From: Minisyncoccota bacterium | GTDB taxonomy: Bacteria > Patescibacteriota > Minisyncoccia > Phycocordibacterales > UBA9973 | NCBI GenBank assembly: GCA_041663005.1 | Contig: JBAZRK010000002.1 | Coordinates: forward strand, 205,402 to 269,401 | Reading direction: 5' to 3' | Length of the DNA: 64,000 nt | Part shown: positions 381 through 61,663 of the stretch, piece after piece | Numbering within the stretch: position 1 is the first letter of the stretch | Layout of the letters: every line of letters begins with the position of its first letter | Translations under genes and position numbers: made by a program | Notes under the pieces: generated by a model | What the model saw: only the letters and a program-made list of their open reading frames with translations | What the model was told of the DNA's origin: nothing | The model's database searches: none

Positions 381-1181
381 ATGGGAAGAGATTCTGCTCC
401 AGGTTCAAAAGAAATAGATCCAAAAGAAGAAGATGCTAAAATAGCGCATGATGCTGAACAGCTAATGTTAGAAAATGGAGATGAGGAGATTCAAGTCGCA
501 ATTAACAAAGTCAAAGAGGAAATAGAAAGAATTCCCTTTAATTCATACTACAGAAAAGAGCAACGCTTGCAAGCAAAAATTAGAGGTTTCGAAACAATTC
601 TTAACAACAGAAAAAGAGAAAAAAATAGGGCGGCAGAAGGAGTAGATGATGTTGGGAAAGCTGAGGCTATGGCATATGCCATGAAGCCGGAAATGGACAA
701 TACTAACGACAGAAACAGATATATGAATTTAGATTTTCGACGCCGACATGAATCGTTTACTATGAGTAAAGCTGAGCGTGAAGAATACGAGCAACTAGGT
801 AGAAGATTTGGGGGTGAAGGATGGGGAAGAGGTCCTTCACATTTAGATAATTTACAGGAGAAGAAATGGGCAGAAGAAAATGCACAAGAGGCCGCCTATG
901 TATACGATGTTGAACAATCGGTGGCGGATAAGAGCGAGGCAGATATAGCTTCAGAGATGAACGGGCTAAAAGAGGAACTTCAAAAATTAGGTAAAGAAGA
1001 CGATAAGTATCTCAGGGCTGAAGATGGCACAAGGAGGGTTATGGAAAGAGAGGGATTTAATCGAGAAGAAGCTGTTCGCCGAATGGAACAAATGAGTAAA
1101 AGGAGATGGACTCTTGAAAAAATAGCTGAAAAAAGAAAAGTAGAAAGACTTTCGAAAGGCATAAAAGACAAGATGCAGTAA
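381..1181 (+). CDS. hypothetical highly charged (E/K/R-rich) protein
   Basis: Track ORF 255..1181. The ATG at 381 is the first in-frame ATG after an AT-rich leader. Low-complexity charged composition with coiled-coil character, no known motif. Confidence 0.45.
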   Translation: MGRDSAPGSKEIDPKEEDAKIAHDAEQLMLENGDEEIQVAINKVKEEIERIPFNSYYRKEQRLQAKIRGFETILNNRKREKNRAAEGVDDVGKAEAMAYAMKPEMDNTNDRNRYMNLDFRRRHESFTMSKAEREEYEQLGRRFGGEGWGRGPSHLDNLQEKKWAEENAQEAAYVYDVEQSVADKSEADIASEMNGLKEELQKLGKEDDKYLRAEDGTRRVMEREGFNREEAVRRMEQMSKRRWTLEKIAEKRKVERLSKGIKDKMQ

Positions 1182-1205
1182 CTATTAGTTTATTTGCAAA
1201 AAAGT

Positions 1206-1249
1206 GCCTGATGCGGTATAGTTCGACTAGCGCATCAGGCGCTTTTTTA
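1206..1249 (+). terminator. rho-independent terminator
   Basis: Stem GCCTGATGCG (1206-1215) pairs with CGCATCAGGC (1231-1240) and is followed by a T-tract (gcttttttat). A second imperfect hairpin follows at 1262-1290. Confidence 0.65.
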
Positions 1250-1321
1250 TTGCTTTATTACCCCGAAGGAAAGCAAAGCTTCCTACGGGGCAGGCATAAT
1301 TTATTATTTATTTAAATACTT

Positions 1322-3469
1322 ATGGAAAGAGATTACCCGTTAGAGAAAGTTAGAAACATTGGAATTATCGCGCACATCGATGCCGGGAAGACTACGACTA
1401 CTGAGCGTGTGCTTTTTTACACTGGAGTATCACACAAAATAGGAGAAGTTCACGACGGAGAAACTACCACCGACTGGATGGAGCAGGAACGAGAACGCGG
1501 AATCACAATTACTTCTGCGGCAGTTACTTGTTTCTGGACACCTACTTACGCGCTTGCAGATAAAACCAAGAAGCATCGTTTCAACATCATCGACACACCA
1601 GGACACATCGACTTTACCGTAGAGGTTAAGCGTTCTCTCCGCGTACTCGACGGAGCTGTTGTCGTTTTCGACGGCGTGGCCGGAGTAGAGCCTCAATCTG
1701 AAACTAACTGGAGATATGCCGACGAGGCGAAAGTTCCTCGCGTTTGTTTCGTAAACAAGCTTGACCGAACAGGCGCATCCTTCGAGCACTCATATGCCAC
1801 AATCCTAGACCGACTTACGAAGAAAGCAGTAAGAATGCAGATTCCTATCGGCCTAGAAGAGAAGCACGAAGGAGTGGTGGACCTTCTCAATATGAAGGCG
1901 TACTATTTCGAAGGAGAAATGGGCAACAAGGTTATTGAAAAAGAAATTCCGGAAGAATTAAAGAAAGAAGCGGAAGGATACCACCACGAGCTCATAGAAA
2001 AGATTGTTGAAACGGACGACAAGATGATGACCGAATACTTGGAGGGAATGACTCCATCCATAGAGACTTTGAAGAAAACTCTCCGCAAGGCGGTTATCGA
2101 CAACAACATTTTCCCAGTATTTGCCGGCAGCGCCCTCAAGAACAAAGGGGTGCAATTGGTGCTCGACGCCGTTGTCGACTACCTACCGTCACCACTAGAC
2201 ATTCCACCGATAGGGGGAGTGGACCCTAACACTGACGAGAAAGCTCTACGCCATGCTTCTGATGAAGAACCTTTCGCAGCACTTGCCTTCAAGGTGGCTA
2301 CCGATCCGTTCGTTGGACAGCTCATATTCTTCCGAGTATATTCCGGAACTCTTGCAGCTGGAAGCTACATCTATAACCCTCGCACCAGGAACAAAGAACG
2401 CATCGGCCGAATTTTGCGTATGCATGCCAACGACCGAGAAGAAGTGAAAAAAGTTTTCGCCGGAGAAATTGCCGCTGCTGTGGGACTCAAAGACACAATT
2501 ACCTCAGATACTATCTGCGACGAGAACAATCCTATCGAGCTTGACCGAATTGTCTTCCCTGAGCCTGTCATCTCTCTCCGCATTGAACCTAAGACCAAGT
2601 CCGACCAGGAGAAAATGGGTATGGCGCTTAACCGTTTGGCCCAAGAAGATCCGACCTTCAAAGTTTCTACCGACCAAGAAACCGGGGAGACAATCATCGC
2701 TGGAATGGGAGAGCTTCACCTTGAAATCATTGTGGACCGTATGAAGCGAGAATTTTCCGTTGAAGCTAACGTCGGCAAGCCACAGGTTGCTTATCGCGAG
2801 ACAATTACGACAAATGCCGATGCGGAAGGTAAATACATCAAGCAGTCAGGAGGACGCGGAAACTACGGTCACGTCAAGATTAAAATTAAACCAATGGAGC
2901 TTCTCACCAAAGAAGAACTGGAAGATTTGCCGAAAAATACCAAGCGCGACGACCATTTCGAATTTGTTAACAACATCAAGGGAGGTGTTATTCCACAAGA
3001 ATACATCGCGCCTTGTGAGAAGGGCTTCCGTGAAGGTTTGGACCGTGGAGTGCTCGCCGGATTTAAAATGGTTAACGTTTCCGTCAATCTCTGGGACGGT
3101 AGCTATCACGAAGTGGACTCGAACGAAATGGCTTTCAAAATTGCCGCTTCGATGGCAATACAAGACGCTTGCAAGAGTGCCAAGCCGGTAATCCTCGAAC
3201 CGATGATGAAAGTTGAAGTTGTTACCCCGGAGAAATTTATGGGAGACGTCACCGGTAACCTCTCTTCTAAGCGAGGACTTATCGAAGGTATGGAAGACCG
3301 AGGAATGAACAAGGTTATGCGCGCGATAGTGCCGCTCTCCGAAATGTTCGGATATATGACCGGACTCCGCTCAATGACCGAAGGCCGCGCTTCTTTCACT
3401 ATGGAATTCTACCGTTACGACATTGTGCCTAACAATGTTGCCGAGACAATCATTGCCGCTAGGAAATAA
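1322..3469 (+). CDS. fusA: translation elongation factor G
   Basis: N-terminal GTPase motif [32 protein letters not shown]; 715 aa typical of EF-G. Confidence 0.95.
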
Positions 3470-3491
3470 CGTAAACAAATTTTACCGGTAC

Positions 3492-3515
3492 GGATTTTTT
3501 AAGCTTAAAAAATCC
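3492..3515. terminator. perfect 24-nt palindrome/hairpin downstream of fusA (putative terminator)
   Basis: GGATTTTTTAAGCTTAAAAAATCC is a perfect inverted repeat giving a 12-bp stem. Confidence 0.4.
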
Positions 3516-3595
3516 TGAAGTTTTCGGCTCGACAGCCTCAAAACCCCTCAAAAATCTGTTTCCGTTATTTTCTGTTTTTTGCTATTATATTAATA

Positions 3596-4675
3596 ATGTT
3601 ATATACGCCTTTCTACGACCCAAGTAAAACATACGAAGAAAACTTCGCAGAAGGACCATTTGGGGTTTTTGCCCGCCCGACTGAGCAGTCGTTCGGGCGG
3701 GCTGACGGGGAACCAAAATATGATTTCCTTGGCGTTAAAGTAAATTCGCCATTCGGAATTCCTGCCGGACCATTGATCAATTCAAATTTTTGTAAAGGAG
3801 CATTTGAAAAAGGGTTTGATATTTGTGTCTATAAGACAGTGCGCTCGGGAGTTTACCCCTGCCACCCATTTCCCAATGTTTTGTCAGTAAAAATTGAGGG
3901 GAATCTGACTTTGGAAAAAGCTCAGGAAAAATTAATTGCCGACAATAATTATGTTGAGCCGATTTCTATAACTAATTCTTTCGGCGTGCCTTCGCGAGAA
4001 GCGACAGCTTGGCAGGACGATGTAAAACAAGCACTTACTTATGCGCGAGCTGGGCAAGTTTTAGTTTTAGGTTTTATGGGTACAGTGCGCGAAGGGCTGA
4101 CAGCGGAAGAATTTATTGCTGACTACGCGCTGGCAGCAAAACAAGCCAAAGAAACAGGAGTAAAAATTCTAGAGACAAATTTATCTTGTCCCAACATCGG
4201 TAACGAAGGTCTTGTCTGCTACAACCTAGATATGACAGCAAAAGTTTGCACAGCTATACGAAAAGAAATAGGGGACACCCCGCTCATTTTAAAAGTTGGC
4301 TACTATAAAGACTATGAAGATGTGAAAAAGCTCGCAGAAATTTGTAAGAAATATGCGCAGGCAATTTCGGCCATCAATACTATCCCCGCAGAAATTGTGG
4401 ACAAAGAAGGGAAGCAAGCATTGCCTGGGCCCAACAGAGTAAAATCAGGAGTATGCGGAGCATCTATAAAATGGGCGGGGCTCGAAATGGCAGAAAAGTT
4501 GAAGAAAGCCCGTACGGAAATAGGCGCAGGGTTTAAAATTATTGGTGTCGGCGGAGTTATGACTTCCGAGGATTTCTTTGAATACCGAAAAGCTGGGGCG
4601 GATTTCGTAATGTCGGCTACCGGAGCTATGTGGAACCCTCATCTTGCTAAAGAGATAAAAGAAAGGCTAGAATAA
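3596..4675 (+). CDS. pyrD: dihydroorotate dehydrogenase-like flavoprotein (class 1 PyrD family)
   Basis: NLSCPN active-site motif, C-terminal IGVGGV FMN-binding motif, TIM-barrel-like layout; neighbour of pyrE and pyrF. Confidence 0.55.
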   Translation: MLYTPFYDPSKTYEENFAEGPFGVFARPTEQSFGRADGEPKYDFLGVKVNSPFGIPAGPLINSNFCKGAFEKGFDICVYKTVRSGVYPCHPFPNVLSVKIEGNLTLEKAQEKLIADNNYVEPISITNSFGVPSREATAWQDDVKQALTYARAGQVLVLGFMGTVREGLTAEEFIADYALAAKQAKETGVKILETNLSCPNIGNEGLVCYNLDMTAKVCTAIRKEIGDTPLILKVGYYKDYEDVKKLAEICKKYAQAISAINTIPAEIVDKEGKQALPGPNRVKSGVCGASIKWAGLEMAEKLKKARTEIGAGFKIIGVGGVMTSEDFFEYRKAGADFVMSATGAMWNPHLAKEIKERLE

Positions 4676-4679
4676 CAAT

Positions 4680-5306
4680 ATGGATATCATTTCTTTACTA
4701 AAAGCCGTAGGCGCTGTAATGCCGGACAGCCATTTTGTCGGAGTGTCAGGCAAGCATATGGCGACCTACATTACCAAAGACGCTTTATTCCCCCACGTTT
4801 TAGAAGTTGAAAAAGTTTGCCAGATGTTTGCTGAAAAAAATAAAGATGTAGATGTAGATGTAGATGTGGTTGCGGCGCCCGCACTCGGGGGAATAATTTT
4901 AGCTCAAGGTACTGCTTATGCGCTCTCTAAAATTAAAGGCAAAGAAATTCTAGCGATATTTACGGAAAAAACAGGAGATGGGGATCAGGTTTTCACCAGA
5001 GGGTACGATAAATACGTCGCTGGCAAAAATGTTCTAGTTTTAGAAGATTTAACGACGACGGGGGGCTCAGTGCAAAAAGTTATAGCAAGTGTAAAGAAGG
5101 CGGGAGGAAATGTGCTGGCTGTCTCCGTAATGGTAAATAAATCTCCAAAAGTAGTTAATAGCGAGATGTTTGGCGTGCCACTGAGGGCCCTCGGAGAGCT
5201 TGAGATAGAAAATTATGATGCCGAAAATTGCCCGCTTTGTAAAAATAATATTCCTATCAATACAGACTTCGGACACGGTAAGAAATTTTTAGAATCCAAA
5301 AAATAG
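4680..5306 (+). CDS. pyrE: orotate phosphoribosyltransferase (type I PRTase)
   Basis: PRPP-binding motif VLVLEDLTTTGGS; about 200 aa; lies between pyrD-like and pyrF. Contains an in-frame (GATGTA)x4 repeat encoding DVDVDVDV. Confidence 0.55.
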   Translation: MDIISLLKAVGAVMPDSHFVGVSGKHMATYITKDALFPHVLEVEKVCQMFAEKNKDVDVDVDVVAAPALGGIILAQGTAYALSKIKGKEILAIFTEKTGDGDQVFTRGYDKYVAGKNVLVLEDLTTTGGSVQKVIASVKKAGGNVLAVSVMVNKSPKVVNSEMFGVPLRALGELEIENYDAENCPLCKNNIPINTDFGHGKKFLESKK

Positions 5307-5307
5307 C

Positions 5308-5982
5308 ATGAAAAAACTAATTTTAGCCTTGGATGAAATACAAAACCTTGATGATGCGGTCAGTCTTGTAAAAAAGGTTGGTTCTTTGATGTATGCCGTA
5401 AAAATTCACAATTTGTATGACAAGTTCGGGCCCGATGTGGTGCGACTACTTAAAGAAGCTGGAGCCGAAAAAGTATGGGTAGACTATAAGCTTTATGATA
5501 TTCCCAACACGGGTAAACTTCGTGGAGAAAGCATTGTGGCAGACATAATATCTGTCCACGCCTCCGGGGGAATAAAGATGATGCAAGAGATAGTTGCCGG
5601 AGGTAAGGAAGTTTTTGCGGTGACGATGCTTACATCTTTCTCTCGGGATGAGGTGAAGCAGATTTATAACAGGGAAGTGGACGAAGCGGTTGTGGTCTTA
5701 GCCCGCTTGGCTAAAGAAGCCGGAGTTTCCGGAGTAGTATGCTCACCCCAAGAAATTAAAATTCTCAGAGGCAATCCTGAGTTTAAAGATTTAAAACTTG
5801 TAGTTCCAGGAATTCGGTCTTCGGGAGTTAGTGCAGATGATCAAATGAGAATAGGCACCCCGTCCCAAGCGCTCGAAGATGGAGCGGACTACTTAGTGAT
5901 AGGCAGGCAAATAACCGAGGCCCCGGACCCTGAGGTAGAAACAATAAAACTTTGCGAAGAAATTAGAAAACTTAGGAACTAA
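5308..5982 (+). CDS. pyrF: orotidine 5'-phosphate decarboxylase
   Basis: LILALDxxxxxxAxxLV N-terminus, VKIHxxxD, and the DYKLYDIPNT catalytic lysine/aspartate motif. Confidence 0.7.
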   Translation: MKKLILALDEIQNLDDAVSLVKKVGSLMYAVKIHNLYDKFGPDVVRLLKEAGAEKVWVDYKLYDIPNTGKLRGESIVADIISVHASGGIKMMQEIVAGGKEVFAVTMLTSFSRDEVKQIYNREVDEAVVVLARLAKEAGVSGVVCSPQEIKILRGNPEFKDLKLVVPGIRSSGVSADDQMRIGTPSQALEDGADYLVIGRQITEAPDPEVETIKLCEEIRKLRN

Positions 5983-10655: not shown

Positions 10656-10661
10656 AAAATT

Positions 10662-10684
10662 AAAAGCCCCGAACGGGGCTTTTA
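10662..10684 (+). terminator. intrinsic terminator inside the ribosomal cluster, after rplB
   Basis: AAAAGCCCCGAACGGGGCTTTT: GC stem with a T-tract. Confidence 0.6.
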
Positions 10685-10686
10685 AT

Positions 10687-10714
10687 TTGACTTTTACTGC
10701 CAATTTGCTACTAT
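10687..10714 (+). promoter_or_regulatory. internal promoter TTGACT-N16-TACTAT upstream of rpsS
   Basis: -35 at 10687-10692 and -10 at 10709-10714. The spacer is almost identical to that of the tuf promoter (CAATTTGCTACTATG). Confidence 0.45.
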
Positions 10715-13577: not shown

Positions 13578-13612
13578 GACGTCGGAGATCAAGGGTTTAG
13601 ATGTCCGACGTC
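13578..13612. repeat. palindromic intergenic repeat, family A copy 1 (GACGTCGGAGATC…GATGTCCGACGTC)
   Basis: 13-nt arms at 13578-13590 and 13600-13612 with one mismatch, lying between rplN and rplX. Confidence 0.6.
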
Positions 13613-13623
13613 AGAAAAACAAA

Positions 13624-13842
13624 ATGAAAATCAAGAAAGGCGACAGCGTAATAATAATGGCAGGCAAGGATAAAGGTAAATCCGGTAAAGTTGTGCATGC
13701 CCTACCGAAAAAGAATAAAGTCGTAGTGGAGGGTCTTAATATGACCAAACGACACCAGAGGCCAAGGAAGTCCGGCGAGAAGGGGACAGTTTTAAGTATG
13801 GCTATGCCTATCGATGTGTCTAATGTAAAAAAAGCAAAATAG
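13624..13842 (+). CDS. rplX: 50S ribosomal protein L24 (short form)
   Basis: KOW-like motif MKIKKGDSVIIMAGKDKGK. Confidence 0.8.
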   Translation: MKIKKGDSVIIMAGKDKGKSGKVVHALPKKNKVVVEGLNMTKRHQRPRKSGEKGTVLSMAMPIDVSNVKKAK

Positions 13843-13866
13843 TTCGACGAGCTCACTATAAATAAT
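13843..13866 (+). promoter_or_regulatory. conserved 24-nt intergenic motif, family B copy 1 (GTTCGACGAGCTCACTATAAATAA)
   Basis: Lies immediately after the rplX stop and 11 nt before the rplE ATG; near-identical copies sit at 15172-15196 and 16753-16776. Confidence 0.5.
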
Positions 13867-14785: not shown

Positions 14786-15172
14786 ATGGATTCAATTTCA
14801 AACATGATAATAATAATGAAGAACGCTTCGCTCGCCGGTAAAGAAACCGCGGTTGTTCCTTATTCCAAGTTGAAGGGCGCTATAGGTGACTGTCTCCAGA
14901 AAGCCGGCTATGTCGGTGAAATTTCGAAGAAAGTGAAGAAAGGACACCCGATTATGGAAGTAAAACTTTTGTACGTGGACAAAAAACCCAAAATTGCCGA
15001 AGTTGAAAGAATTTCCAAACAGTCTCGCCGAGTGTATTTCGGTATGAAAGATATTCATACTGTCAGAAACGGTACAGGGCTTTTAGTGCTTTCAACACCA
15101 AAGGGAATTTTATCAGGCAAGGATGCCCGCAAAGAGCAAGTGGGAGGTGAAGCTTTATTTAGAATTTGGTAG
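14786..15172 (+). CDS. rpsH: 30S ribosomal protein S8
   Basis: 128 aa, after S14; S8-like C-terminus (LSTPKGILSGKDARKEQVGGEAL). Confidence 0.85.
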   Translation: MDSISNMIIIMKNASLAGKETAVVPYSKLKGAIGDCLQKAGYVGEISKKVKKGHPIMEVKLLYVDKKPKIAEVERISKQSRRVYFGMKDIHTVRNGTGLLVLSTPKGILSGKDARKEQVGGEALFRIW

Positions 15173-15196
15173 TTCGACAAGCTCACTATAAATAAA
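15172..15196 (+). promoter_or_regulatory. family B intergenic motif copy 2 (GTTCGACAAGCTCACTATAAATAA)
   Basis: Lies between the rpsH stop and rplF start; 23/24 identical to copy 1. Confidence 0.5.
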
Positions 15197-15743: not shown

Positions 15744-15779
15744 GACGTCGGACATCAAGAATCCCAGATGTCCGACGTC
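15744..15779. repeat. palindromic intergenic repeat, family A copy 2 (perfect 13-bp arms GACGTCGGACATC / GATGTCCGACGTC)
   Basis: Arms at 15744-15756 and 15767-15779, lying between rplF and rplR. Confidence 0.65.
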
Positions 15780-16750: not shown

Positions 16751-16752
16751 TG

Positions 16753-16776
16753 GTTCGACAAGCTCACCATAAATAA
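16753..16776 (+). promoter_or_regulatory. family B intergenic motif copy 3 (GTTCGACAAGCTCACCATAAATAA)
   Basis: Lies between the rpsE stop and the L15 start. There is no L30 gene between S5 and L15. Confidence 0.5.
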
Positions 16777-17118: not shown

Positions 17119-18390
17119 ATGGAAAATTTCTGGAACAAAATAAAACTGATATGGACAGACTCCAGCTTGCGAAATCGGATTTTTTTTGTGCTCTTTGCCC
17201 TAATCGTCTTCCGACTGCTTGCTGCTATTCCTATTCCAGGGATTGACCAGACGGCGCTTGAGCGTTTCCTTTCCAACAACCAATTCTTTGGCATCCTAAA
17301 CATTTTCTCTGGCGGTGGATTGTCCAACCTTTCTATCATAATGTTGGGCGTTGGTCCTTACATCACTAGCTCTATTATTATGCAGCTCCTTACCTTGATG
17401 GTTCCCGCCTTGAAGCGCCTTTATCACGAAGAAGGGGAAGCAGGTAGGAAAAAGTTTTCTCAGTGGAGCCGATTGATTACTGTTCCCTTGGCCGCAGTGC
17501 AGGGCTTCAGCTTGTTGTTCCTTTTGGAACAGCAAAATATTATTTTCCACCTCAATGCTTTCGACCGAATGACAAATTTGTTTATTGTCGTTGCGGGCTC
17601 TATCCTCCTTATGTGGATAGGGGAGCTCGTTACTGAGTTTGGAATTGGTAACGGAGTTTCTTTAATAATTTTCGCTGGTATCGTCTCACGTCTTCCGACC
17701 GTAGTTGGCGAGCTTGCCTTTCAATTTGATGCTTCCCAGATACCGCTTTACCTCGGGTTTGCTGTTGCTGGTCTTCTAGTCATCGCGGGTATCGTGGTGG
17801 TTACGGAAGCGGAGAGGCCAATTCCAGTTACTTATGCTAAACGTGTCCGCGGAGCGAAAATGTATGGTGGTGGGTCTACATACTTGCCTTTGCGTGTTAA
17901 CCAAGCCGGAGTAATTCCAATAATCTTTGCACTCTCCATCCTCCTCTTCCCTCAGATGATAGGAACTTTCTTGGCGCGTTTTACTAATCCAATTTTACTG
18001 AAAATTTCTGCTGTTCTTTCCGCATTCTCGAACACGAGCGTGCTCTACGCAGTGCTCTACTTTATGTTTGTATTTATGTTCACTTATTTCTATACCGCCG
18101 TTACTTTCGATCCGGAAGCTTTGTCCGAGAATTTACAAAAAAATGGCGCCTTTATTCCAGGTATTCGCCCAGGACCATCTACTTCAGAATATATTTCTAA
18201 GGTTCTTACCCGCATCACCCTCCTCGGGGCCGTATTCCTTGGAGTCATCGCCGTACTTCCAATAATTATGCAGCGAATGACTGGCATCGCCTCACTCGCC
18301 ATCGGGGGAACCTCGGTTCTTATCGTTGTCTCAGTAGTTCTAGACTTACTCAAAAAAGTCGATGCTCAAGTCTCAATGCGAGAGTACTAA
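17119..18390 (+). CDS. secY: preprotein translocase subunit SecY
   Basis: 10-TM profile, SecY plug/hinge motifs, position after rplO. Confidence 0.9.
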   Translation: MENFWNKIKLIWTDSSLRNRIFFVLFALIVFRLLAAIPIPGIDQTALERFLSNNQFFGILNIFSGGGLSNLSIIMLGVGPYITSSIIMQLLTLMVPALKRLYHEEGEAGRKKFSQWSRLITVPLAAVQGFSLLFLLEQQNIIFHLNAFDRMTNLFIVVAGSILLMWIGELVTEFGIGNGVSLIIFAGIVSRLPTVVGELAFQFDASQIPLYLGFAVAGLLVIAGIVVVTEAERPIPVTYAKRVRGAKMYGGGSTYLPLRVNQAGVIPIIFALSILLFPQMIGTFLARFTNPILLKISAVLSAFSNTSVLYAVLYFMFVFMFTYFYTAVTFDPEALSENLQKNGAFIPGIRPGPSTSEYISKVLTRITLLGAVFLGVIAVLPIIMQRMTGIASLAIGGTSVLIVVSVVLDLLKKVDAQVSMREY

Positions 18391-19157
18391 TTGTCTAGCC
18401 TTTTAGCTTCTGCCAGGGCTAATTTAAATACACTTCTTAGTGTTGTGGCTATTTCTTTGGATTCGATTATGACTCCCAATTTTTCTTTCCAAGAGGCAAT
18501 CATTACTTTGTCGTTATAAATTTCTATGTCTGTGGGCACGGGGAACTTATCTCCCGGCACAAGTGAAGTGTCGCGGTATTCTATTGCGTCCCTTGATTTT
18601 CTTTTGCGGGCGAGGGGAGTGTCAGCGACGAAAGTATGCACGAATATTTTTTTCTTGGCGCGGCGTTCATAGTATGTCTCAAAATATTTCGGTAAAGTCT
18701 CATGCATTTCTTCATACGTGGAAGTGGAATAAATATCTCCCTTAGACGTGAGGGAGTCTTCGTACACATGCTCTAATCCCGCAAACCCTTCATAGAAAAA
18801 TACGCGAGGCCTGTCACCCACATTATAGAGTGAAGTAAGCTCGGGTAAAACTTCTTTGGCAGTATCGGCGAGCGTTTTTTGTTTTTTAGCTTGCGCTTCA
18901 AGGTATTCCACCAAGTTGGCAGGGGACAGAGCGGCGTATTCTTCCTTCGGTTCTTTGCCGGAGATTTTTACGAGCTTTTTGCCGACTAGACTATCTAATA
19001 TGACATACCCGGTCGAGCGATTTATGCCCGCCTTCCTAGATATCTCAGCAACAGTACCTCGGCCCAGCTCTAATATGGTCAAATATATGGCTATTTCCTT
19101 GTCTAAAAAGCCACTATCTTTCAATAATTGCTCTATTTTTAACATTTGTTCCTTCAT
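18387..19157 (-). CDS. TrmB-family transcriptional regulator (N-terminal winged HTH)
   Basis: LTILELGRGTVAEISRKAGINRSTGYVILDSLVGKKLV is wHTH-like, with a C-terminal TrmB-like domain. Confidence 0.5.
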   Translation of the reverse strand: MKEQMLKIEQLLKDSGFLDKEIAIYLTILELGRGTVAEISRKAGINRSTGYVILDSLVGKKLVKISGKEPKEEYAALSPANLVEYLEAQAKKQKTLADTAKEVLPELTSLYNVGDRPRVFFYEGFAGLEHVYEDSLTSKGDIYSTSTYEEMHETLPKYFETYYERRAKKKIFVHTFVADTPLARKRKSRDAIEYRDTSLVPGDKFPVPTDIEIYNDKVMIASWKEKLGVIIESKEIATTLRSVFKLALAEAKRLDN

Positions 19158-22902: not shown

Positions 22903-25668
22903 ATGAATCCCTCTTTTATAAAAGAGATGCCGAAATTCAAGACTCCAGAGGAGGAGCTGGATTATCTTCGTGCCCACGTTAAGAAGCGCGAAGAGGAACT
23001 TATAGAAATAGGACACACTGAACGCACTGCAGAGATGGCTACGCGCGAGGTTATGGGCGAATACAGAACGGTCCCGGTGGAGAAAGCCGTGCATAAAGAT
23101 AATGTTTTGAAAGAAGACGAAACCGAAGGCATTGTGCTTAAACTTAAACCTGAACCGCATGATACCGTGATGGAAGAGCTTTTGGGGATTGTGATTACTA
23201 AAGGAATCCGAAATGCGCTTTCTGTAGTTGAGGCAATGGGCAATCCGCATATCGATGACGACTTTCATCGTTTACTCATTCAATATTTCAAAACTGGGCA
23301 AATCACTGGGTTTAAAGAAGGTACTCCGATGTATCGGTCTCTTAATATGACTCTTTTTGAAATAACTTTGCCGCCGCCACAAGACGAAGCCGACAAGTCG
23401 AAGGGCTTTAAAGAATTTATCGGGGCCATGGAGCAGTTTTATGCCGGTATGCAGTCTATCTCCGAAGGCAAGAGTAATGAGAAAGAAAATTATTTCACCA
23501 TAGAGGTGGCGCTTGGCAATCAAAGCGATGAAGTGGTGATATATGCCGCTGTGCCCAATAAATATTTGTCTCTTTTTGAAAAACAAATCCTGGCTTTCTA
23601 TCACGATGCGAAAATCCGAGAGGTAACCGACGACTACAACATTTTCAACGAGCAGGGCGCCTCGACAGGGGCTTATGCTGTGTTCACTGAACGCCCAGTA
23701 ATGCCCATTAAGACCTATGACGAGATCGAGCACGACCCGATGAACCCTATTCTAAACGTTTTCTCCAAGCTACAGAAGAGCGGTGAAGGAGCGGCTATTC
23801 AATTCCTCATAGCTCCGGCGGGGGATAAATTTATCAATGAGTTTCATATGATTCTAGATGATGTCAAAGACGGCATTTCAGTTAAACATGCGGCAGACAA
23901 TTTCTATAAATGGCGTAGTGCTCTCAAGACTGCCGGCAAGGATCTCTTGTTTGGGCTGAAAGAAAAAAACGAAGAAGAAAAAAAGGAAAAGTATATGAAA
24001 GGCAGGCGCGCCGTGGATGAAGGTGCCGCAGAAAAAATAGGCAACAAAATAAAGAGCACCATAATGAAAGCGAATATCCGCGTGATTGCCTCCGGCGAAA
24101 CGAAAGAGCGCGCAGAAGCAATTCTTCGTGAAATAGAATCTTCCTTCAATCAATTTTCTGCCGCAGCTTCAAATTCTTTCATCTTCCAAGAGGCGAAGGG
24201 CGGCGACTTGAAAAAACTTTTCCACGATTTTTCTTACCGAGCTTTTGCACACGAAAAGATTCTCCCGATGAACTTGAAAGAACTTTCTTCCGTTTTCCAC
24301 TTCCCGGTAGGTATGGGTAGTCAGCCGCAACTCAAAGAAGCCAAGGCGGGCATTGCGCCAGCACCGATAGAAATGGGAACCGAAGGCATAGTCTTGGGCA
24401 TAAATAGCTACCGAGGCCGAGATACGGAAGTGCACTTAGCCCGAGAAGACAGGATGAGACATATGTATGTAATAGGGCAAACTGGAACCGGTAAGACGAA
24501 CATTATGCTCAATATGATTACTCAGGATATCCGTAACGGTGACGGGTGCTGCTACATTGACCCTCATGGCACAGATATCCAGACGATCCTCTCTAGAATT
24601 CCTAAGGAGCGCATTGACGATGTTATCTATTTCGATCCCGCCTATACTGCCCGTCCAATGGGACTCAACATGCTCGAATATGATCCAAAGTACCCTGAGC
24701 AGAAAACCTTCGTGGTGAACGAAATGATGGGAATTTTCAACAAACTTTTCGATATGAAAGTCGGAGGCGGAGCGATGTTCGAACAATATTTCCGAAACAG
24801 CGCCTTTCTCGTGATGGAAGACCCTTCTTCCGGTTCGACCCTCCTTGAGATTACTCGAGTGCTTGGTGACAAAGAATTTCGCGATTTGAAATTGTCCCGT
24901 TGCAAGAATCCAATCATAAAACAATTTTGGGTTTCGGCGGAGCAGACTACGGGTGACCAGTCGCTCGCAAACTTCGTGCCCTATATTTCTTCCAAATTCG
25001 ACAACTTTATTTCCAACGACATAATGCGTCCAGTGGTGCTTCAGCAGAACTCGGTTTTTAATTTTAGAAAAATTATGGACGAGAAGAAAATTCTCTTGGT
25101 CAATCTTTCGAAAGGTAGACTGGGCGACATCAATGCGAACCTCATAGGTCTCGTGCTTGTTGGCAAAATTCAAATGGCCGCACTGTCTCGTGTAGATATG
25201 TTCGGCAAGCCGATGAATGATTTCTATTTGTATATCGATGAGTTCCAGAACGTTACCACGGACTCTATCGCTTCAATTCTCTCAGAAGCGCGAAAGTATA
25301 GATTGTCTCTCAACATTGCCCACCAGTACATTACCCAGCTCGAAGAGAATATCAAGAATGCTGTTTTTGGTAACGTCGGCTCTATGGCGGTGTTCCGTGT
25401 GGGTACCGAAGACGCGACATTCCTCGAGCCGAAATTCAAACCGCAATTTACCGCGCACGACATTACTAAACTTGATAACTTTAATGCGTATATGAGCATG
25501 CTAGTGAAAGGTCAGCCTACCAAACCTTTCAACATCCGCACGCTAGCGCCCGAGACTGGAAATCCAGAAATAGTGGACAGCTTGAAAGAACTTTCATATG
25601 TTAAATACGGTCGTGATCGTGAAGAAGTGGAGAAGGAAATAATGTCGCGATACAATACGATGGAATAA
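22903..25668 (+). CDS. soluble P-loop ATPase with a TraD/TrwB/VirD4-like (type IV coupling protein-like) C-terminal half and a novel ~480-aa N-terminal domain
   Basis: Walker A HMYVIGQTGTGKT, DPHG motif (compare DPKG in coupling proteins), Walker B LYIDEFQNV, and ARKYRLSLNIAHQYITQL (compare RKxxxxxxxxxQSxxQL). No predicted TM helices. Confidence 0.5.
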   Translation: MNPSFIKEMPKFKTPEEELDYLRAHVKKREEELIEIGHTERTAEMATREVMGEYRTVPVEKAVHKDNVLKEDETEGIVLKLKPEPHDTVMEELLGIVITKGIRNALSVVEAMGNPHIDDDFHRLLIQYFKTGQITGFKEGTPMYRSLNMTLFEITLPPPQDEADKSKGFKEFIGAMEQFYAGMQSISEGKSNEKENYFTIEVALGNQSDEVVIYAAVPNKYLSLFEKQILAFYHDAKIREVTDDYNIFNEQGASTGAYAVFTERPVMPIKTYDEIEHDPMNPILNVFSKLQKSGEGAAIQFLIAPAGDKFINEFHMILDDVKDGISVKHAADNFYKWRSALKTAGKDLLFGLKEKNEEEKKEKYMKGRRAVDEGAAEKIGNKIKSTIMKANIRVIASGETKERAEAILREIESSFNQFSAAASNSFIFQEAKGGDLKKLFHDFSYRAFAHEKILPMNLKELSSVFHFPVGMGSQPQLKEAKAGIAPAPIEMGTEGIVLGINSYRGRDTEVHLAREDRMRHMYVIGQTGTGKTNIMLNMITQDIRNGDGCCYIDPHGTDIQTILSRIPKERIDDVIYFDPAYTARPMGLNMLEYDPKYPEQKTFVVNEMMGIFNKLFDMKVGGGAMFEQYFRNSAFLVMEDPSSGSTLLEITRVLGDKEFRDLKLSRCKNPIIKQFWVSAEQTTGDQSLANFVPYISSKFDNFISNDIMRPVVLQQNSVFNFRKIMDEKKILLVNLSKGRLGDINANLIGLVLVGKIQMAALSRVDMFGKPMNDFYLYIDEFQNVTTDSIASILSEARKYRLSLNIAHQYITQLEENIKNAVFGNVGSMAVFRVGTEDATFLEPKFKPQFTAHDITKLDNFNAYMSMLVKGQPTKPFNIRTLAPETGNPEIVDSLKELSYVKYGRDREEVEKEIMSRYNTME

Positions 25669-28294: not shown

Positions 28295-28918
28295 ATGGCA
28301 ATCATAAAAAACTTTTCAGACAAACACGGCCACTCCCAAATAAAAATTTGTGTTTCAGGCGCCGCCGAAACTGGGCATTGTGGCATTGATGCCCTTGATA
28401 CCGCCAAGGAGCTTGGCAGAGAGATAGCTCGACAGGGAGCCATAATAGTTACCGGAGCCACTACTGGATTCCCACTGTGGTCGGCTATGGGGGCCAAAGA
28501 AGAAGGAGGAATTTCAATCGGCATTTCGCCCGCAGCCTCAGAGCGCGAGCACGTGGAATCCTATAAGTTACCGGTTGATTATATGGATATGATTATTTAT
28601 ACCGGCTTTGGCTACCCAGGGAGAGATATTTTATTAACGCGTTCTGCCGACGCAGTTATTTGCGGCTGCGGACGGGTAGGAACCATTCACGAGTTCACGG
28701 TGGCCTTCGAAGATGGCAAGCCTATCGGTATTTTAGAAGGGGATTGGGAAACCGACAAAGAGATAAAAAGTATTATAGACAATGGTCACCGCCCCAATGC
28801 AAAAATAGTTTTTAGCGACGACCCGAAAAAACTAATTGAAGAAGTTATTGCTCTGGTGAAGAAAGATAAGATTGCAGAGTACAAAATAGTACCGCCGTTA
28901 GGAACAGATACACAATAA
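28295..28918 (+). CDS. LOG/TIGR00725-family Rossmann-fold nucleotide-binding protein
   Basis: IIVTGATTGFPLWSAMGA…GGISIGISP…ICGCGRVGTIHEF pattern typical of the TIGR00725/LOG family. Confidence 0.45.
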   Translation: MAIIKNFSDKHGHSQIKICVSGAAETGHCGIDALDTAKELGREIARQGAIIVTGATTGFPLWSAMGAKEEGGISIGISPAASEREHVESYKLPVDYMDMIIYTGFGYPGRDILLTRSADAVICGCGRVGTIHEFTVAFEDGKPIGILEGDWETDKEIKSIIDNGHRPNAKIVFSDDPKKLIEEVIALVKKDKIAEYKIVPPLGTDTQ

Positions 28919-28947
28919 AAAAACCCCGCCGAAGCGGGGTTTTTTTA
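28919..28947. terminator. bidirectional rho-independent terminator
   Basis: AAAAAACCCCGCCGAAGCGGGGTTTTTTT lies between the convergent 28295..28918 gene and rplT. Confidence 0.8.
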
Positions 28948-28959
28948 TTGGGAATTTAT

Positions 28960-33388: not shown

Positions 33389-33462
33389 CCGTCCTTAGCT
33401 CAGTTGGTTAGAGCACAGAGCTTATACCTCTGGGGTCCTTGGTTCGAATCCAAGAGGACGGA
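33389..33462 (+). tRNA. tRNA-Ile with anticodon UAU (manual fold)
   Basis: Acceptor CCGTCCT/AGGACGG, D-arm GCTC-AGTTGGTTA-GAGC, anticodon stem CAGAG/CTCTG with loop CTTATAC (anticodon TAT), T-arm CTTGG-TTCGAAT-CCAAG, discriminator A; CCA not encoded. Confidence 0.6.
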
Positions 33463-33626
33463 CACTAAAAATCTAAAAAATTTACCTCGTACGGGCTTGT
33501 AGTTGCTCGATTTTACAGAGTGTCTCTTGTTTTATTTTTTCTCCTGTTTTCTTTTGCAAAGTTTTCCAAAAAACAGTGGTTTTCCACTTTACATTGAGGG
33601 GCTAACTGCGTGATAATGATAGTCCA

Positions 33627-36476: not shown

Positions 36477-36508
36477 CTCTAGCTCTAAAATAGGAGTAAA
36501 ATAAAAGT

Positions 36509-36607
36509 ATGCTCTACACAAGAAAAGGGGACGGCGGCACCACCAAGACTTTTGGTTGCAATAGTATTAGAATATATACATGTCATTTTTATTGCAGGTT
36601 GCGATAA
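36509..36607 (+). pseudogene. 5' fragment of a pduO-type adenosyltransferase gene (17 codons), duplicate of the 38024 gene start
   Basis: 36509-36562 is 47/54 nt identical to 38024-38077 and encodes MLYTRKGDGGTTKTFGC (identical for 17 aa); the frame then runs into unrelated AT-rich sequence. Confidence 0.55.
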
Positions 36608-38007: not shown

Positions 38008-38023
38008 TTAACAAAAAACTTTT

Positions 38024-38581
38024 ATGCTCTACACGAGAAAAGGGGATGGCGGTACCACGAAGACTTTCGGATGCGATCAGCGCATTTCTAAGAGCTCGCT
38101 CGTAGCTGAAGCTCTGGGCTCGCTTGATGAAGCGAATTCTTTTCTTGGGGTAGCTCGAGCCCGCTCAACACGAAGGACGTTTAAAATTGGCGCTGAAGAA
38201 TTAAAATTCTCCGAGCTTGTTTTAGAAGTTCAGCAGAATTTATTTATTGTGCAGGCGGAAGTGGCGGGGTCTACCTTGTCTATTGATAAAGAAAAAGTTT
38301 CTAGGGTTGAGCACATAGTAGATGAAATAGAAAAAGTTCTTCCGCCCATAAGTAGTTTCTTCATTAGTGGTTCAACGGAATTGTCGGCGACTTTTGATTT
38401 CGCACGCACATTAGCCCGCCGAGCCGAGAGGAGAGTGGTGGCAGCAAAAGAAGAAGGGAAAATTACCGTGAGCGACAACACAATGTCGTACCTAAATAGA
38501 CTATCGAGTTTGTTGTATGCGCTGGCAAGAATTTCGAGCCACATAGATGGAGTCGAAGAACCCAAGCCCACATATAAATAA
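38024..38581 (+). CDS. pduO: ATP:cob(I)alamin adenosyltransferase, PduO type
   Basis: MLYTRKGDGGTTKTFGCDQRISKSSLVAEALGSLDEANSFLGVARA is the canonical PduO-type N-terminus. Confidence 0.75.
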   Translation: MLYTRKGDGGTTKTFGCDQRISKSSLVAEALGSLDEANSFLGVARARSTRRTFKIGAEELKFSELVLEVQQNLFIVQAEVAGSTLSIDKEKVSRVEHIVDEIEKVLPPISSFFISGSTELSATFDFARTLARRAERRVVAAKEEGKITVSDNTMSYLNRLSSLLYALARISSHIDGVEEPKPTYK

Positions 38582-41070: not shown

Positions 41071-41343
41071 ATGAAACACGATAAAAAAACATCAAAAGGA
41101 AAAGTTGCAGCTGTGGGGGTGGGTATGGCAGCAGTCGGAGCGGGCGCTTACTACCTGCTCGGACCGAAAGGGAAAGCACACCAGAAGAAATTAATGGCAA
41201 TGGGCAAGAAAGCTGCCGGTCAAGTTAAAAAGGAGGCAGGTAAACTAAAAAAAGACTGGGAAGATATCTCGTCCCAAGCGGAGAAAGTTGCTAATAAGGT
41301 GAAATCCACTGTTAAAAAAGTAAAAGCCAGGGCTAAAAAATAA
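41071..41343 (+). CDS. hypothetical small K-rich protein with an N-terminal TM helix
   Basis: ORF only. Confidence 0.35.
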   Translation: MKHDKKTSKGKVAAVGVGMAAVGAGAYYLLGPKGKAHQKKLMAMGKKAAGQVKKEAGKLKKDWEDISSQAEKVANKVKSTVKKVKARAKK

Positions 41344-41362
41344 AAGTAAACAGAAAACAAAA

Positions 41363-41386
41363 ATGTACATAATATATTACGTACAT
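41363..41386. repeat. 24-nt AT-rich palindrome ATGTACATAATATATTACGTACAT (copy 1; one mismatch to a perfect palindrome)
   Basis: Lies between a + strand gene end and the 3' end of the minus-strand tRNA-Ser; a perfect copy is at 61179-61202. Confidence 0.6.
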
Positions 41387-41399
41387 TTTCGTTTTGATG

Positions 41400-45659: not shown

Positions 45660-46355
45660 TTAATGAGCAAGAGTGAAAGCGATGACTTTACGGGCGCCGG
45701 CATCCTTAAGCGTGCGTCTGGCCTCGGAGAGGGTGGCGCCCGTGGTTAGGATGTCGTCTATTAAAATTATATTTCTCCCTGCGACAATTGCAGGGTTGTC
45801 AACCTGGAAAGTTCCGCGCATATTTTCCATTCGTCTTTTACGGTCCTTAATATGAGCTTGGTGTTCTGTTTCTTTGGGTTTAACGAGAGCATTCTCGCTG
45901 AGCTCAAACTTTACCCCGGAGTTTTCTTGCGCAATATTAATTTTCAGGATTTCTCGACAAATCAACGCAGCTTGATTGTAACCGCGCTCACGCAAACGTT
46001 TGCGTGAAAGAGGTATGGGTACCAAAAGTGTATTGTTAAAATTTTCCAAAACCGCAAGGTCGGCAAGCTCCTCAAGCATATTTTCGTACAAAATTTCGGC
46101 AAAAATTTTCGCCAACCGTCTCTTGCCCTTGTACTTAAACAACCAAAGGGATTTTTTAATGGGTGGGTGACGGTAGTCGTATAAAGGGAAAATCCACTTG
46201 GCGCTCTCCCGTTCAGCCCTAGGACAGTCTTCCAGACACCGAGAACAGAAATCTAACCCAGCTTTGCCACATATGGCGCATTTGATTGGGAAGACAAGGG
46301 AGAGTATTGTGTCTAAAAAATCCATATATGATATACTTAAGGGGTATTTTAGCAT
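45660..46355 (-). CDS. comFC: ComF-family competence protein (ComFC-like phosphoribosyltransferase)
   Basis: N-terminal Cys4 zinc finger (CAICG…CSRC) plus a C-terminal PRTase motif ILIDDILTTGATL. Confidence 0.65.
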   Translation of the reverse strand: MLKYPLSISYMDFLDTILSLVFPIKCAICGKAGLDFCSRCLEDCPRAERESAKWIFPLYDYRHPPIKKSLWLFKYKGKRRLAKIFAEILYENMLEELADLAVLENFNNTLLVPIPLSRKRLRERGYNQAALICREILKINIAQENSGVKFELSENALVKPKETEHQAHIKDRKRRMENMRGTFQVDNPAIVAGRNIILIDDILTTGATLSEARRTLKDAGARKVIAFTLAH

Positions 46356-52520: not shown

Positions 52521-52576
52521 AATCAGACATCGGACGCGAAAGAATTCCTACGTCCGACGCCTAGAATGATACAATT

Positions 52577-54343: not shown

Positions 54344-54362
54344 TTAATTTCAATAGTTATTA

Positions 54363-54395
54363 AGAAAAAACGACCAAAGGGTCGTTTTTTCTTTT
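54363..54395 (+). terminator. rho-independent terminator after the first pilin gene
   Basis: AAAAAACGACCAAAGGGTCGTTTTTTCTTTTT. Confidence 0.7.
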
Positions 54396-57492: not shown

Positions 57493-61133
<3,641 letters not shown>

Positions 61134-61178
61134 AATACTGAAAGCGCTTAGTATATCATATATGATAGATTAAGGGTT

Positions 61179-61202
61179 ATGTACGTAATATATTACGTAC
61201 AT
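61179..61202. repeat. perfect 24-nt palindrome ATGTACGTAATATATTACGTACAT (copy 2), with adjacent palindromes TATCATATATGATA and TTACATATGTAA
   Basis: Exact inverted repeat; lies between the convergent ligA and the minus-strand CsaA/tRNA-Ser unit. Confidence 0.65.
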
Positions 61203-61226
61203 AATGTACTTACATATGTAAGGAGA

Positions 61227-61550
61227 TTAGCGGACGATACTTCCAGGCTCTACGTCCTCTGCAGGGTGGAGTAGGATGGGGGCGTCGCCAGAACTCGCCG
61301 CAAGCATCATACCCTGACTTTCCAGTCCGCGCATTTTGCGAGGCTCGAGGTTTACAATGAAAGGCATTTCTTTGCCCGGGAGTGTCGAAAGATCGGCTAC
61401 GAATTCCGCAATGCCCGCTAGTATCTGCCTCTCCTCGGTGCCGAAATTTACCATCATTCGCACTAGTTTATCTGAGTCCGGAATTCTCTCCGCGGAAATT
61501 ACTTTCCCTATTCGTATATCTAATTTTTTGAAATCTTCTATTGTAATCAT
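61227..61550 (-). CDS. tRNA-binding protein (CsaA/Trbp111-like OB-fold domain)
   Basis: DIRIGKVISAERIPDSDKLVRMMVNFG…RQILAGIAEF…NLEPRKMRGLESQGMMLAA is the Trbp111/MetRS C-domain signature. The start was moved to the ATG at 61550 because the track ORF overlaps the tRNA. Confidence 0.6.
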   Translation of the reverse strand: MITIEDFKKLDIRIGKVISAERIPDSDKLVRMMVNFGTEERQILAGIAEFVADLSTLPGKEMPFIVNLEPRKMRGLESQGMMLAASSGDAPILLHPAEDVEPGSIVR

Positions 61551-61578
61551 AAAAATAAGTTCTGATTTCGAATTTTTG

Positions 61579-61663
61579 CGGAGGGTAGGAGATTCGAACT
61601 CCTGGTGGATTGCTCCACACACGCTTTCCAAGCGTGCGCACTAGACCGCTATGCGAACCCTCC
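61579..61663 (-). tRNA. tRNA-Ser (anticodon GGA), long variable arm
   Basis: Reverse complement GGAGGGT-TC-GCA-TAGCGGTCTAG-TGC-G-CACGC-TTGGAAA-GCGTG-…-AGGAG-TTCGAAT-CTCCT-ACCCTCC-G. Confidence 0.65.

Follow-up and report, generated by a model that had tools for sequence, protein, structure and literature searches.

Repetitive extragenic palindromic (REP) elements and the bacterial interspersed mosaic elements (BIMEs) of Proteobacteria are extragenic palindromes of 20 to 40 nt whose sequence is repeated at the 3' ends of unrelated genes and is homogeneous within a genome and divergent between genomes. REPs stabilize upstream mRNA and bind proteins such as gyrase and IHF. We analyzed an element that is like them in all of these sequence traits, the 24-nt palindrome ATGTACGTAATATATTACGTACAT, in a stretch of 64,000 nucleotides from a Minisyncoccota bacterium (assembly GCA_041663005.1, contig JBAZRK010000002.1, positions 205,402 to 269,401). 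This whole stretch is called the window here, and positions are counted from its first letter. The 24-mer belongs to a lineage-conserved family of extragenic palindromes, and our leading, though tentative, reading from sequence comparison is that it is a REP-like hairpin, recognized by its sequence, that would define or protect transcript 3' ends.

The likeness to REPs and BIMEs is incomplete. REPs are expected at tens to hundreds of copies per genome, whereas we found 2 copies in approximately 73 kb. Additionally, the 24-mer carries no GTAG or CGTC tag, no REP-associated tyrosine transposase (RAYT) was found among the approximately 40 window proteins that were scanned against Pfam, and deeply diverged species have kept the palindrome at an orthologous position. 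Bidirectional intrinsic terminators are similar in another way, as they are palindromic stem-loops between convergent genes, and one of the window copies (copy 1) has their arrangement of A-tract, stem, and T-tract. However, the stem is AT rich, most copies have no U-tract, and one stem sequence recurs at unrelated loci and has been conserved between species, unlike in ordinary terminators.

Two further systems invite comparison. The inverted pairs of DNA uptake sequences (DUS) or uptake signal sequences (USS) found in terminators of Neisseria and Pasteurellaceae are also conserved short inverted pairs at gene ends that are shared by related lineages, and the window, in common with DUS hosts, encodes type IV pilus genes. 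However, DUS occur about once per kb, while single half-sites of the palindrome are not overrepresented. Tandem operator arrays with an ACGT core are known from the MetJ metbox and from the TrpR operators. These arrays (AGACGTCT repeats in the case of the metbox) resemble some members of the palindrome family in being short ACGT-core palindromes with a fixed period and 2 to 3 copies, but the palindrome has a period of 12 bp and is placed at the 3' ends of genes rather than at promoters. The general scan of the window proteins, in which no search was aimed at either family, turned up no homolog of MetJ or TrpR.

Other candidates were rejected. By inspection against the consensus sequences, the palindrome matched neither dif (11-6-11) nor parS (TGTTNCACGTGAAACA), and its copies are 20 kb apart; the cumulative GC skew climbs monotonically over the window without a switch and thus indicates no origin or terminus within it. 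Resemblances to the LexA box, the NrdR box, the PadR site (ATGT-N8-ACAT), tetO/TGM, and RTP-Ter were likewise rejected on spacing or sequence, by inspection. Literature searches on Patescibacteria terminators, on REPs, and on this motif found nothing, and a term search of a REP survey gave no mention of REP-like elements for Patescibacteria. We are probably dealing with a conserved extragenic palindrome at gene ends that is new for the phylum, as far as the literature searched shows, and whose likeliest function is a conventional one.

Copies of the palindrome in the window

The exact 24-mer is present at positions 61179 to 61202 (copy 2), where the symmetry extends further to give a perfect 28-nt palindrome (61177 to 61204). 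A second copy with a single mismatch, ATGTACATAATATATTACGTACAT, is present at 41363 to 41386 (copy 1), with a G-to-A change at position 7; both copies had been recognized in the initial annotation. Copy 1 is the center of an extended 42-nt palindrome, AAAACAAAA-24-mer-TTTTCGTTTT (41354 to 41395), which, with its A- and T-tracts, has the shape of a bidirectional intrinsic terminator. The exact copy is AT rich (6 of 24 bases are G or C). No third match was found in the window at up to three mismatches, and 100 dinucleotide-preserving shuffles yielded no match at all, which places two copies far beyond chance.

The sequences flanking copies 1 and 2 are unrelated, and thus the repeated unit is the palindrome itself. 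The two copies, which belong to the same genome, differ at 1 of 24 positions, while orthologous copies in relatives differ at 4 to 6 of 24. L009/L010 and L049 belong to the same organism, with 100% protein identity; the additional 8.7 kb of this genome in L049 contained no new copy, and a covariance-model search of 178 kb of collected sequence detected no diverged extra loci. Half-sites with up to two mismatches gave eight matches, compared with 3.8 ± 1.9 expected; four of them are the arms of the palindromes, and the other four are weak, with the one that was checked located inside a gene.

Both copies are found at convergent junctions, where the end of a plus-strand gene meets the end of a minus-strand unit containing a tRNA-Ser. 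The two tRNA genes, tRNA-Ser(GCU) at 41399/41400 to 41488 and tRNA-Ser(GGA) at 61578/61579 to 61663, both on the minus strand, were confirmed by ARAGORN and Rfam. At copy 1, a plus-strand gene for a YtxH-like protein of 90 amino acids (41071 to 41343) converges on the palindrome, leaving 19 nt between its stop codon and the palindrome, and on the other side tRNA-Ser(GCU) has its 3' end 12 nt away. At copy 2, the converging plus-strand gene encodes the NAD-dependent DNA ligase LigA (59148 to 61133), identified by its Pfam domains, and the minus-strand gene that ends 24 nt from the palindrome encodes a CsaA-like protein with a tRNA-binding domain (61227 to 61550; PF01588), labeled methionine--tRNA ligase beta chain in source annotations.

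Conservation in related lineages

For comparison, we used the loci of the closest CsaA-like orthologs; the percentages given here are amino acid identities of the CsaA-like proteins. The shared core of the palindrome family, TACGTAAT-NN-ATTACGTA, is found directly after the CsaA-like gene in four other lineages. L013 (85%) has the form AAT TACGTAAT AC ATTACGTA ATT, preceded by a hairpin (hairpin C) that also adjoins copy 2, while L012 (78%) has two sites (left and right), each of them a three-unit array with a 12-bp period. In L022/L023 (71%), the sequence CAT TACGTAAT CT ATTACGTA CAT takes up all 23 nt of the spacer and shares bases with the LigA stop codon, and in L011 (82%) the palindrome is present in a degenerate form, AGG TACGTAAT AC TTTACGCA CAT. 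The core is replaced in L018/L019 (77%) by a different perfect palindrome of 28 nt, ACACATATACGCCATGGCGTATATGTGT, which follows ATGTACTTAC. Thus, at the orthologous spot of this lineage, palindromy itself has been maintained. No palindrome was found at the CsaA-like junction of L020/L021 (71%), where the genes abut, and no motif was found in the P0080 lineage, where the CsaA-like gene is in a tandem RecR-CsaA-GrpE context. Orthologs of the 90-amino-acid gene at copy 1 were found in a relative (L014 to L017) with neither a tRNA-Ser nor a palindrome downstream.

The exact 24-mer was also found in L008, a 2.2-kb Hainich groundwater contig without any tRNA. There it is preceded by the 12-mer ATGTACTTACAT, which also stands beside copy 2 (61204 to 61215), and a TrxB-like gene has its stop codon 3 nt from the palindrome's end, at a site that is nonorthologous to those of the window. 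The TrxB protein is closest to proteins of Candidatus Nomurabacteria (82% identity), and the GC content of the contig is 49%, versus 43% for the window; this similarity and this difference suggest that L008 comes from a Nomurabacteria-like lineage other than that of the window's organism. L008 was the informative match when public genome and metagenome collections, neither of which includes the window's own genome, were scanned for TGTACRTAATATATTAYGTACA. The metagenome collection otherwise returned six A/T-only chance matches, and the only match in the genome collection was an A/T-only chance match in Prochlorococcus. The core, when scanned for in a viral collection, had 25 scattered single matches lacking extended palindromy, and we judged these to be consistent with chance.

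Every copy found is just past the 3' end of a gene or tRNA, at a distance of 0 to 45 nt from the stop codon or tRNA end, and 6 of the 7 independent contexts are convergent junctions. In L008, L011, L012 (right site), and L022, the palindrome abuts or overlaps stop codons and is essentially the entire spacer. The initial annotation had linked the palindrome both to tRNA-Ser genes and to convergent gene ends: the association with gene ends, mostly convergent ones, held in these lineages, while that with tRNA-Ser is not general, as seen in L008.

Constraint on sequence and symmetry

Four-fold degenerate sites of the CsaA-like gene have a mean identity of 0.37 (0.26 to 0.50) among the core-bearing lineages and are effectively saturated. 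The core is identical at 16 of 16 positions in copy 2, L013, the left site of L012, and L022/L023, and at 14 of 16 positions in L011. By formal pair counting, the inner seven stem pairs never vary, and the outer pairs do so in a partly compensatory manner (ATG/CAT, AAT/ATT, and AGT/ACT). The spacing of the half-sites is fixed, with no insertions or deletions, and the central dinucleotide is free (AT, AC, GT, CT, or AG). Outside the core, the palindrome is extended in a locus-specific way, to 28 nt at copy 2, 42 nt at copy 1, and 40 nt at the right site of L012.

The frozen core thus points to the maintenance of a specific sequence, beyond what a hairpin alone would call for, whereas the locus-specific extensions point to the maintenance of palindromy outside the core, beyond what a simple protein site would need. 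The invariance of the inner 8 bp at saturated divergence, together with the near identity of nonorthologous copies, argues that the sequence is read and not only folded.

Folding potential and terminator features

Copy 1 has the layout of A-tract, stem, and T-tract on both strands. The minus-strand RNA, which is in the tRNA sense, forms an uninterrupted stem of 19 bp (−19.7 kcal/mol; z = −4.9) with UUUUUGUUUU after it, and a terminator-like site with 19 pairs was predicted on this strand. The fold of the plus-strand RNA is weaker (−11.5 to −12.5 kcal/mol), because the mismatch is an A·C there but a G·U pair in the minus-strand RNA. For the copies in the window and in the relatives together, the stems are 10 to 19 bp long and the folding energies range from −8 to −25 kcal/mol in 54-nt windows. 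A U-tract, defined as at least 5 U in the 8 nt directly after the stem, is present on both strands at copy 1 and on the plus strand in L008. At the gathering score, Rfam 15 detected only tRNAs and the tmRNA, with no family at the palindromes, and permissive Rfam searches of both palindrome sites gave only generic hairpin noise far below the thresholds.

The window contains canonical bidirectional terminators (A-tract, GC-rich stem, and T-tract) at 10657 to 10688, 28913 to 28950, and 54362 to 54393. Copy 1 shares this architecture, but its stem is the AT-rich 24-mer, whereas each of the other terminators has its own GC-rich stem. The bidirectional terminator that was initially proposed for both copies therefore suits copy 1, with its tracts and stable stem, but would be noncanonical for copy 2 and most copies of the relatives, which have no U-tract.

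Proposed function

The location, conservation, and folding potential of the palindromes are observed directly. In a group of Parcubacteria, the palindromes appear to take up the minimal spacer in which transcription units end, mostly convergent ones. Owing to its perfect symmetry, the element would supply either of the converging transcripts with the same AU-rich stem-loop of 10 to 19 bp. We propose that this stem-loop would define or protect the 3' ends of both transcripts. Copy 1, flanked by A- and T-tracts, would be a true bidirectional intrinsic terminator, and copy 2 and most copies of the relatives, as 3' hairpins without a U-tract, may act as a pause site, as an exonuclease block, or in factor-assisted termination. 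The core would be read by a trans-acting factor, most likely a protein that recognizes the duplex or the hairpin, as is the case with REP elements.

Several observations weigh against this proposal. The covariation is weak, with a score of 0.173 versus 0.115, and 38 of 500 shuffles reach the observed value. Only 2 copies are present in 72.7 kb of this genome, which is far below classical REP densities. The U-tract is absent from either strand at copy 2 and is also missing in L011, at both copies of L012, in L013, and in L022, and the genome clearly also ends genes with canonical GC-rich T-tract terminators. A canonical GC-rich bidirectional terminator is found just past the palindrome in L008 as well, and thus the palindrome is not needed as a terminator there. 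Moreover, neither a RAYT/Y1 transposase nor any other partner protein was found among the scanned window proteins.

A bolder proposal, which we regard as a long shot, is that the TACGTAAT-NN-ATTACGTA duplex is the site of a dedicated Parcubacteria protein and would act as a sequence-specific, orientation-independent terminator or insulator at convergent junctions of these ultra-compact genomes. Mitochondrial mTERF and the Pol I roadblocks Reb1/TTF-I would be functional analogues of such a protein-dependent element; to our knowledge, roadblock-type termination of this kind has not been established as a general bacterial mechanism. If true, such a protein would explain how the stretch from one stop codon to the other can consist of nothing but a palindrome without a U-tract, and it would account for the frozen sequence of the palindrome.

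Alternative explanations

The alternative that survives best, although we consider it unlikely, is that the palindrome is a DNA-level site for a dimeric and possibly cooperatively multimerizing protein, which might serve at convergent junctions as an architectural or roadblock factor or might be an operator protein. The unit would be the 10-bp palindrome ATTACGTAAT with a 12-bp period, and the hairpin potential would be a by-product of two-fold symmetry. The invariance of the core at saturated neutral divergence, the strictly fixed spacing of half-sites around a free central dinucleotide, the three-unit arrays with a 12-bp period at both L012 copies, and the identical consensus-like sites in two lineages are all in agreement with such a site. 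Additionally, the L013 site ends 4 nt before the extended −10-like TGGTAGAAT of the next gene, and the left site of L012 is 15 to 30 nt upstream of a similar element, TGGTAGAGT, ahead of a tRNA-Ser. However, these are the only two sites that promoter-like elements adjoin, and most sites have a stop codon on either side and no promoter that could be regulated. Contacts with the core only would not predict the locus-specific extension of the palindrome past it (28, 42, and 40 nt), and L018 has exchanged the core for another perfect palindrome. No candidate or cognate protein was linked to the sites; the sole regulator noted in the window is a TrmB-family helix-turn-helix protein (18387 to 19157). 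The operator of a dimeric protein, one of the roles named in the initial annotation, is thus favored by the invariant 8+8-nt core and the fixed half-site spacing and disfavored by the position of the sites at gene 3' ends instead of promoters.

It is rather improbable that the palindrome is a mobile repeat similar to REPs or to miniature inverted-repeat transposable elements (MITEs), spread by a RAYT-like Y1 enzyme or another hairpin-recognizing enzyme, with gene ends as tolerated insertion sites. Such spread would account for near-identical copies with unrelated flanks at nonhomologous loci, for the exact 24-mer together with an accessory module at a nonorthologous site of a different lineage, and for copies that are homogeneous within a genome and divergent between genomes, and repeated intergenic hairpins of another family (GACGTCGGACATC...GATGTCCGACGTC) are present in the genome. 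However, at least five lineages with saturated synonymous sites have kept the palindrome at their orthologous CsaA/LigA junctions, which indicates long-term retention and not recent insertion. The copy density is low, no transposase was found among the scanned window proteins, and no target-site duplications were evident.

We consider it quite improbable, too, that the element is an ordinary intrinsic terminator with no sequence-specific reader, the similarity of the copies being due to common descent and slow stem evolution. The shape of copy 1, the location of all copies at gene ends, and the different palindrome at the same spot in L018 are compatible with this explanation. It is harder to reconcile with the absence of a U-tract from most copies, with an inner 8 bp that shows no compensatory change across lineages with saturated neutral sites, or with nonorthologous copies that are near identical and an exact copy in a separate lineage; the individual GC-rich stems of the window's other terminators also argue against it.

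Finally, an attachment or recombination site for an integrase targeting tRNA-Ser loci, as suggested in the initial annotation, is very improbable: although both window copies flank tRNA-Ser units, the tRNA-Ser(GGA) neighborhood is rearranged in relatives, and the left site of L012 is at the junction of two differently arranged segments, the L012 arrangement is unusable as evidence because it is possibly an assembly chimera (two LigA genes, 68% identical), no integrase or recombinase was found among the scanned window proteins, the L008 copy is on a 2.2-kb contig without a tRNA, the palindrome is outside the tRNA (12 nt past its end at copy 1 and beyond the CsaA-like gene at copy 2), the insertions seen in relatives are between the tRNA and the CsaA-like gene, across that gene from the palindrome, no sequence like the 24-mer is present in L020, and tRNA-derived direct repeats, searched for around the L020 and L018 islands, were absent from the sequence examined.

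Genomic surroundings of the copies

The tRNA-Ser(GGA) neighborhood is an insertion hot spot in the relatives. In L013, a GIY-YIG endonuclease gene (55 to 754) is located between tRNA-Ser(GGA) and the CsaA-like gene, and in L018 the same interval (790 to 3654) contains SWIM and Fic genes and a gene of 217 amino acids. In L020/L021, an island with a large serine recombinase, HTH_36, and AbiEii (12366 to 19537 in L020) is found beside tRNA-Ser(GGA), which is separated from the CsaA-like gene. The palindrome is absent from these insertions. L012 is a single MEGAHIT contig with a full LigA gene on the plus strand (2807 to 4804) and, past tRNA-Ser and the CsaA-like gene, the 3' end of a second LigA gene on the minus strand (5362 to 5895), with 68% identity between them at the DNA level. 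Either two related genomes were merged during assembly, with the join near the conserved palindrome, or the contig reflects an old inverted duplication. With two LigA genes that are only 68% identical, we rejected the apparent inversion of the tRNA-Ser/CsaA unit between palindromes as evidence.

In the window, tRNA-Ser(GGA) (61578 to 61663) is located 27 nt upstream of the start of the CsaA-like gene, and this placement suggests that the two form one transcription unit that ends at copy 2. L011, L012, and L022 likewise have the tRNA gene immediately upstream of the CsaA-like gene. The gap between these same-strand genes is 27 nt in the window (61550 to 61663), and in L012 (4912 to 5001) the end of the tRNA coincides with the start codon; the arrangement suggests that the CsaA-like mRNA is freed from a tRNA co-transcript by tRNA processing.

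Copy 2 is the middle one (hairpin B) of three adjacent hairpins. Hairpin A (61147 to 61174; CTTAGTATATCATATATGATAGATTAAG) is on the LigA side and has the form TCTATCA/TATCA-TATA-TGATAGA, and a similar palindrome follows the full-length LigA gene in L012 (4807 to 4835). Its half-sites resemble operators of the tetO/TGM type, TATCA...TGATA. Hairpin C (61204 to 61227; ATGTAC-TTACATATGTAA-GGAGAT) is on the CsaA side and is conserved in L013, and its module ATGTACTTAC(AT) also adjoins the palindromes of L008 and L018. Hairpin C seems to be flipped in L013 relative to the window, but mirrored substitutions that arose independently in a near-perfect palindrome explain this. The shorter palindromes reported earlier next to copy 2 are real, with TATCATATATGATA at 61154 to 61167 and TTACATATGTAA at 61210 to 61221 (originally given as about 61209 to 61220).

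The names of homologous proteins assign the window to Parcubacteria/Patescibacteria, from groundwater, and the window forms part of a 226-kb ENA metagenome contig (ERZ27249449 k141_1396074; 226,392 bp). The scanned window proteins have core functions and include EF-G, EF-Tu, the S10 ribosomal operon, SecY, nucleotide kinases, an RNase J-like enzyme, L20, IF3, SmpB, FtsH, a class II ribonucleotide reductase, RecG, MscL, SodC, the type IV pilus proteins, and LigA. The scan found no integrase, transposase, recombinase, or ParB. A VirD4/TraG-like type IV coupling protein of 921 amino acids (22903 to 25668), with weak TraG-D_C and TrwB matches, is encoded amid the housekeeping genes.

Other repeats and features of the window

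The second intergenic hairpin family, GACGTCGGACATC-(loop)-GATGTCCGACGTC, is present at 13578 to 13612 and 15744 to 15779 and, in a weaker form, at 52524 to 52561. These hairpins have 13-bp GC-rich stems and no T-tract, two of the copies follow genes in the ribosomal-protein operon region, and the head of the hairpin contains CGTC, which is reminiscent of CGTC-tagged REPs. The ribosomal-protein operon additionally has three copies of a 26-nt spacer, TAGTTCGACRAGCTCACTATAAATAA, which are 88 to 100% identical (13840 to 13865, 15170 to 15195, and 16751 to 16776). At least two of them start at or right after the upstream stop codon, and they end 1 to 12 nt before the next ATG; this spacer may be a conserved intercistronic element.

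A 55-nt direct repeat with 87% identity (36508 to 36562 and 38023 to 38077) duplicates the start of a Cob_adeno_trans-like gene (38024 to 38581) just upstream of an open reading frame of 475 amino acids at 36580 and seems to be what is left of a duplicated gene start. At 45988 to 46007, inside a minus-strand gene with a phosphoribosyltransferase domain (45660 to 46355), there is a perfect palindrome of 20 nt, TCACGCAAACGTTTGCGTGA, that resembles the PurR-box consensus ACGCAAACGTTTGCGT. A tRNA-Ile with the anticodon TAT (UAU) is encoded at 33389 to 33463, just after FtsH and downstream of tmRNA/SmpB; tRNA-Ile(UAU) is an uncommon bacterial way of reading AUA codons.

Implications

The genomes of the candidate phyla radiation (CPR)/Patescibacteria are tiny and densely packed, and the ways in which transcription ends in these organisms, as well as their noncoding signals, are almost uncharted. 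The analysis corrects the tempting but unsupported interpretation of palindromes beside tRNA genes as attachment sites. A noncoding element that is identical across lineages with randomized synonymous sites, and that is often the sole spacer between convergent genes, is a concrete and testable cis-element. Overall, it could reveal how collision and read-through are prevented in these organisms, whether they have REP-like families, and which protein reads the sequence.

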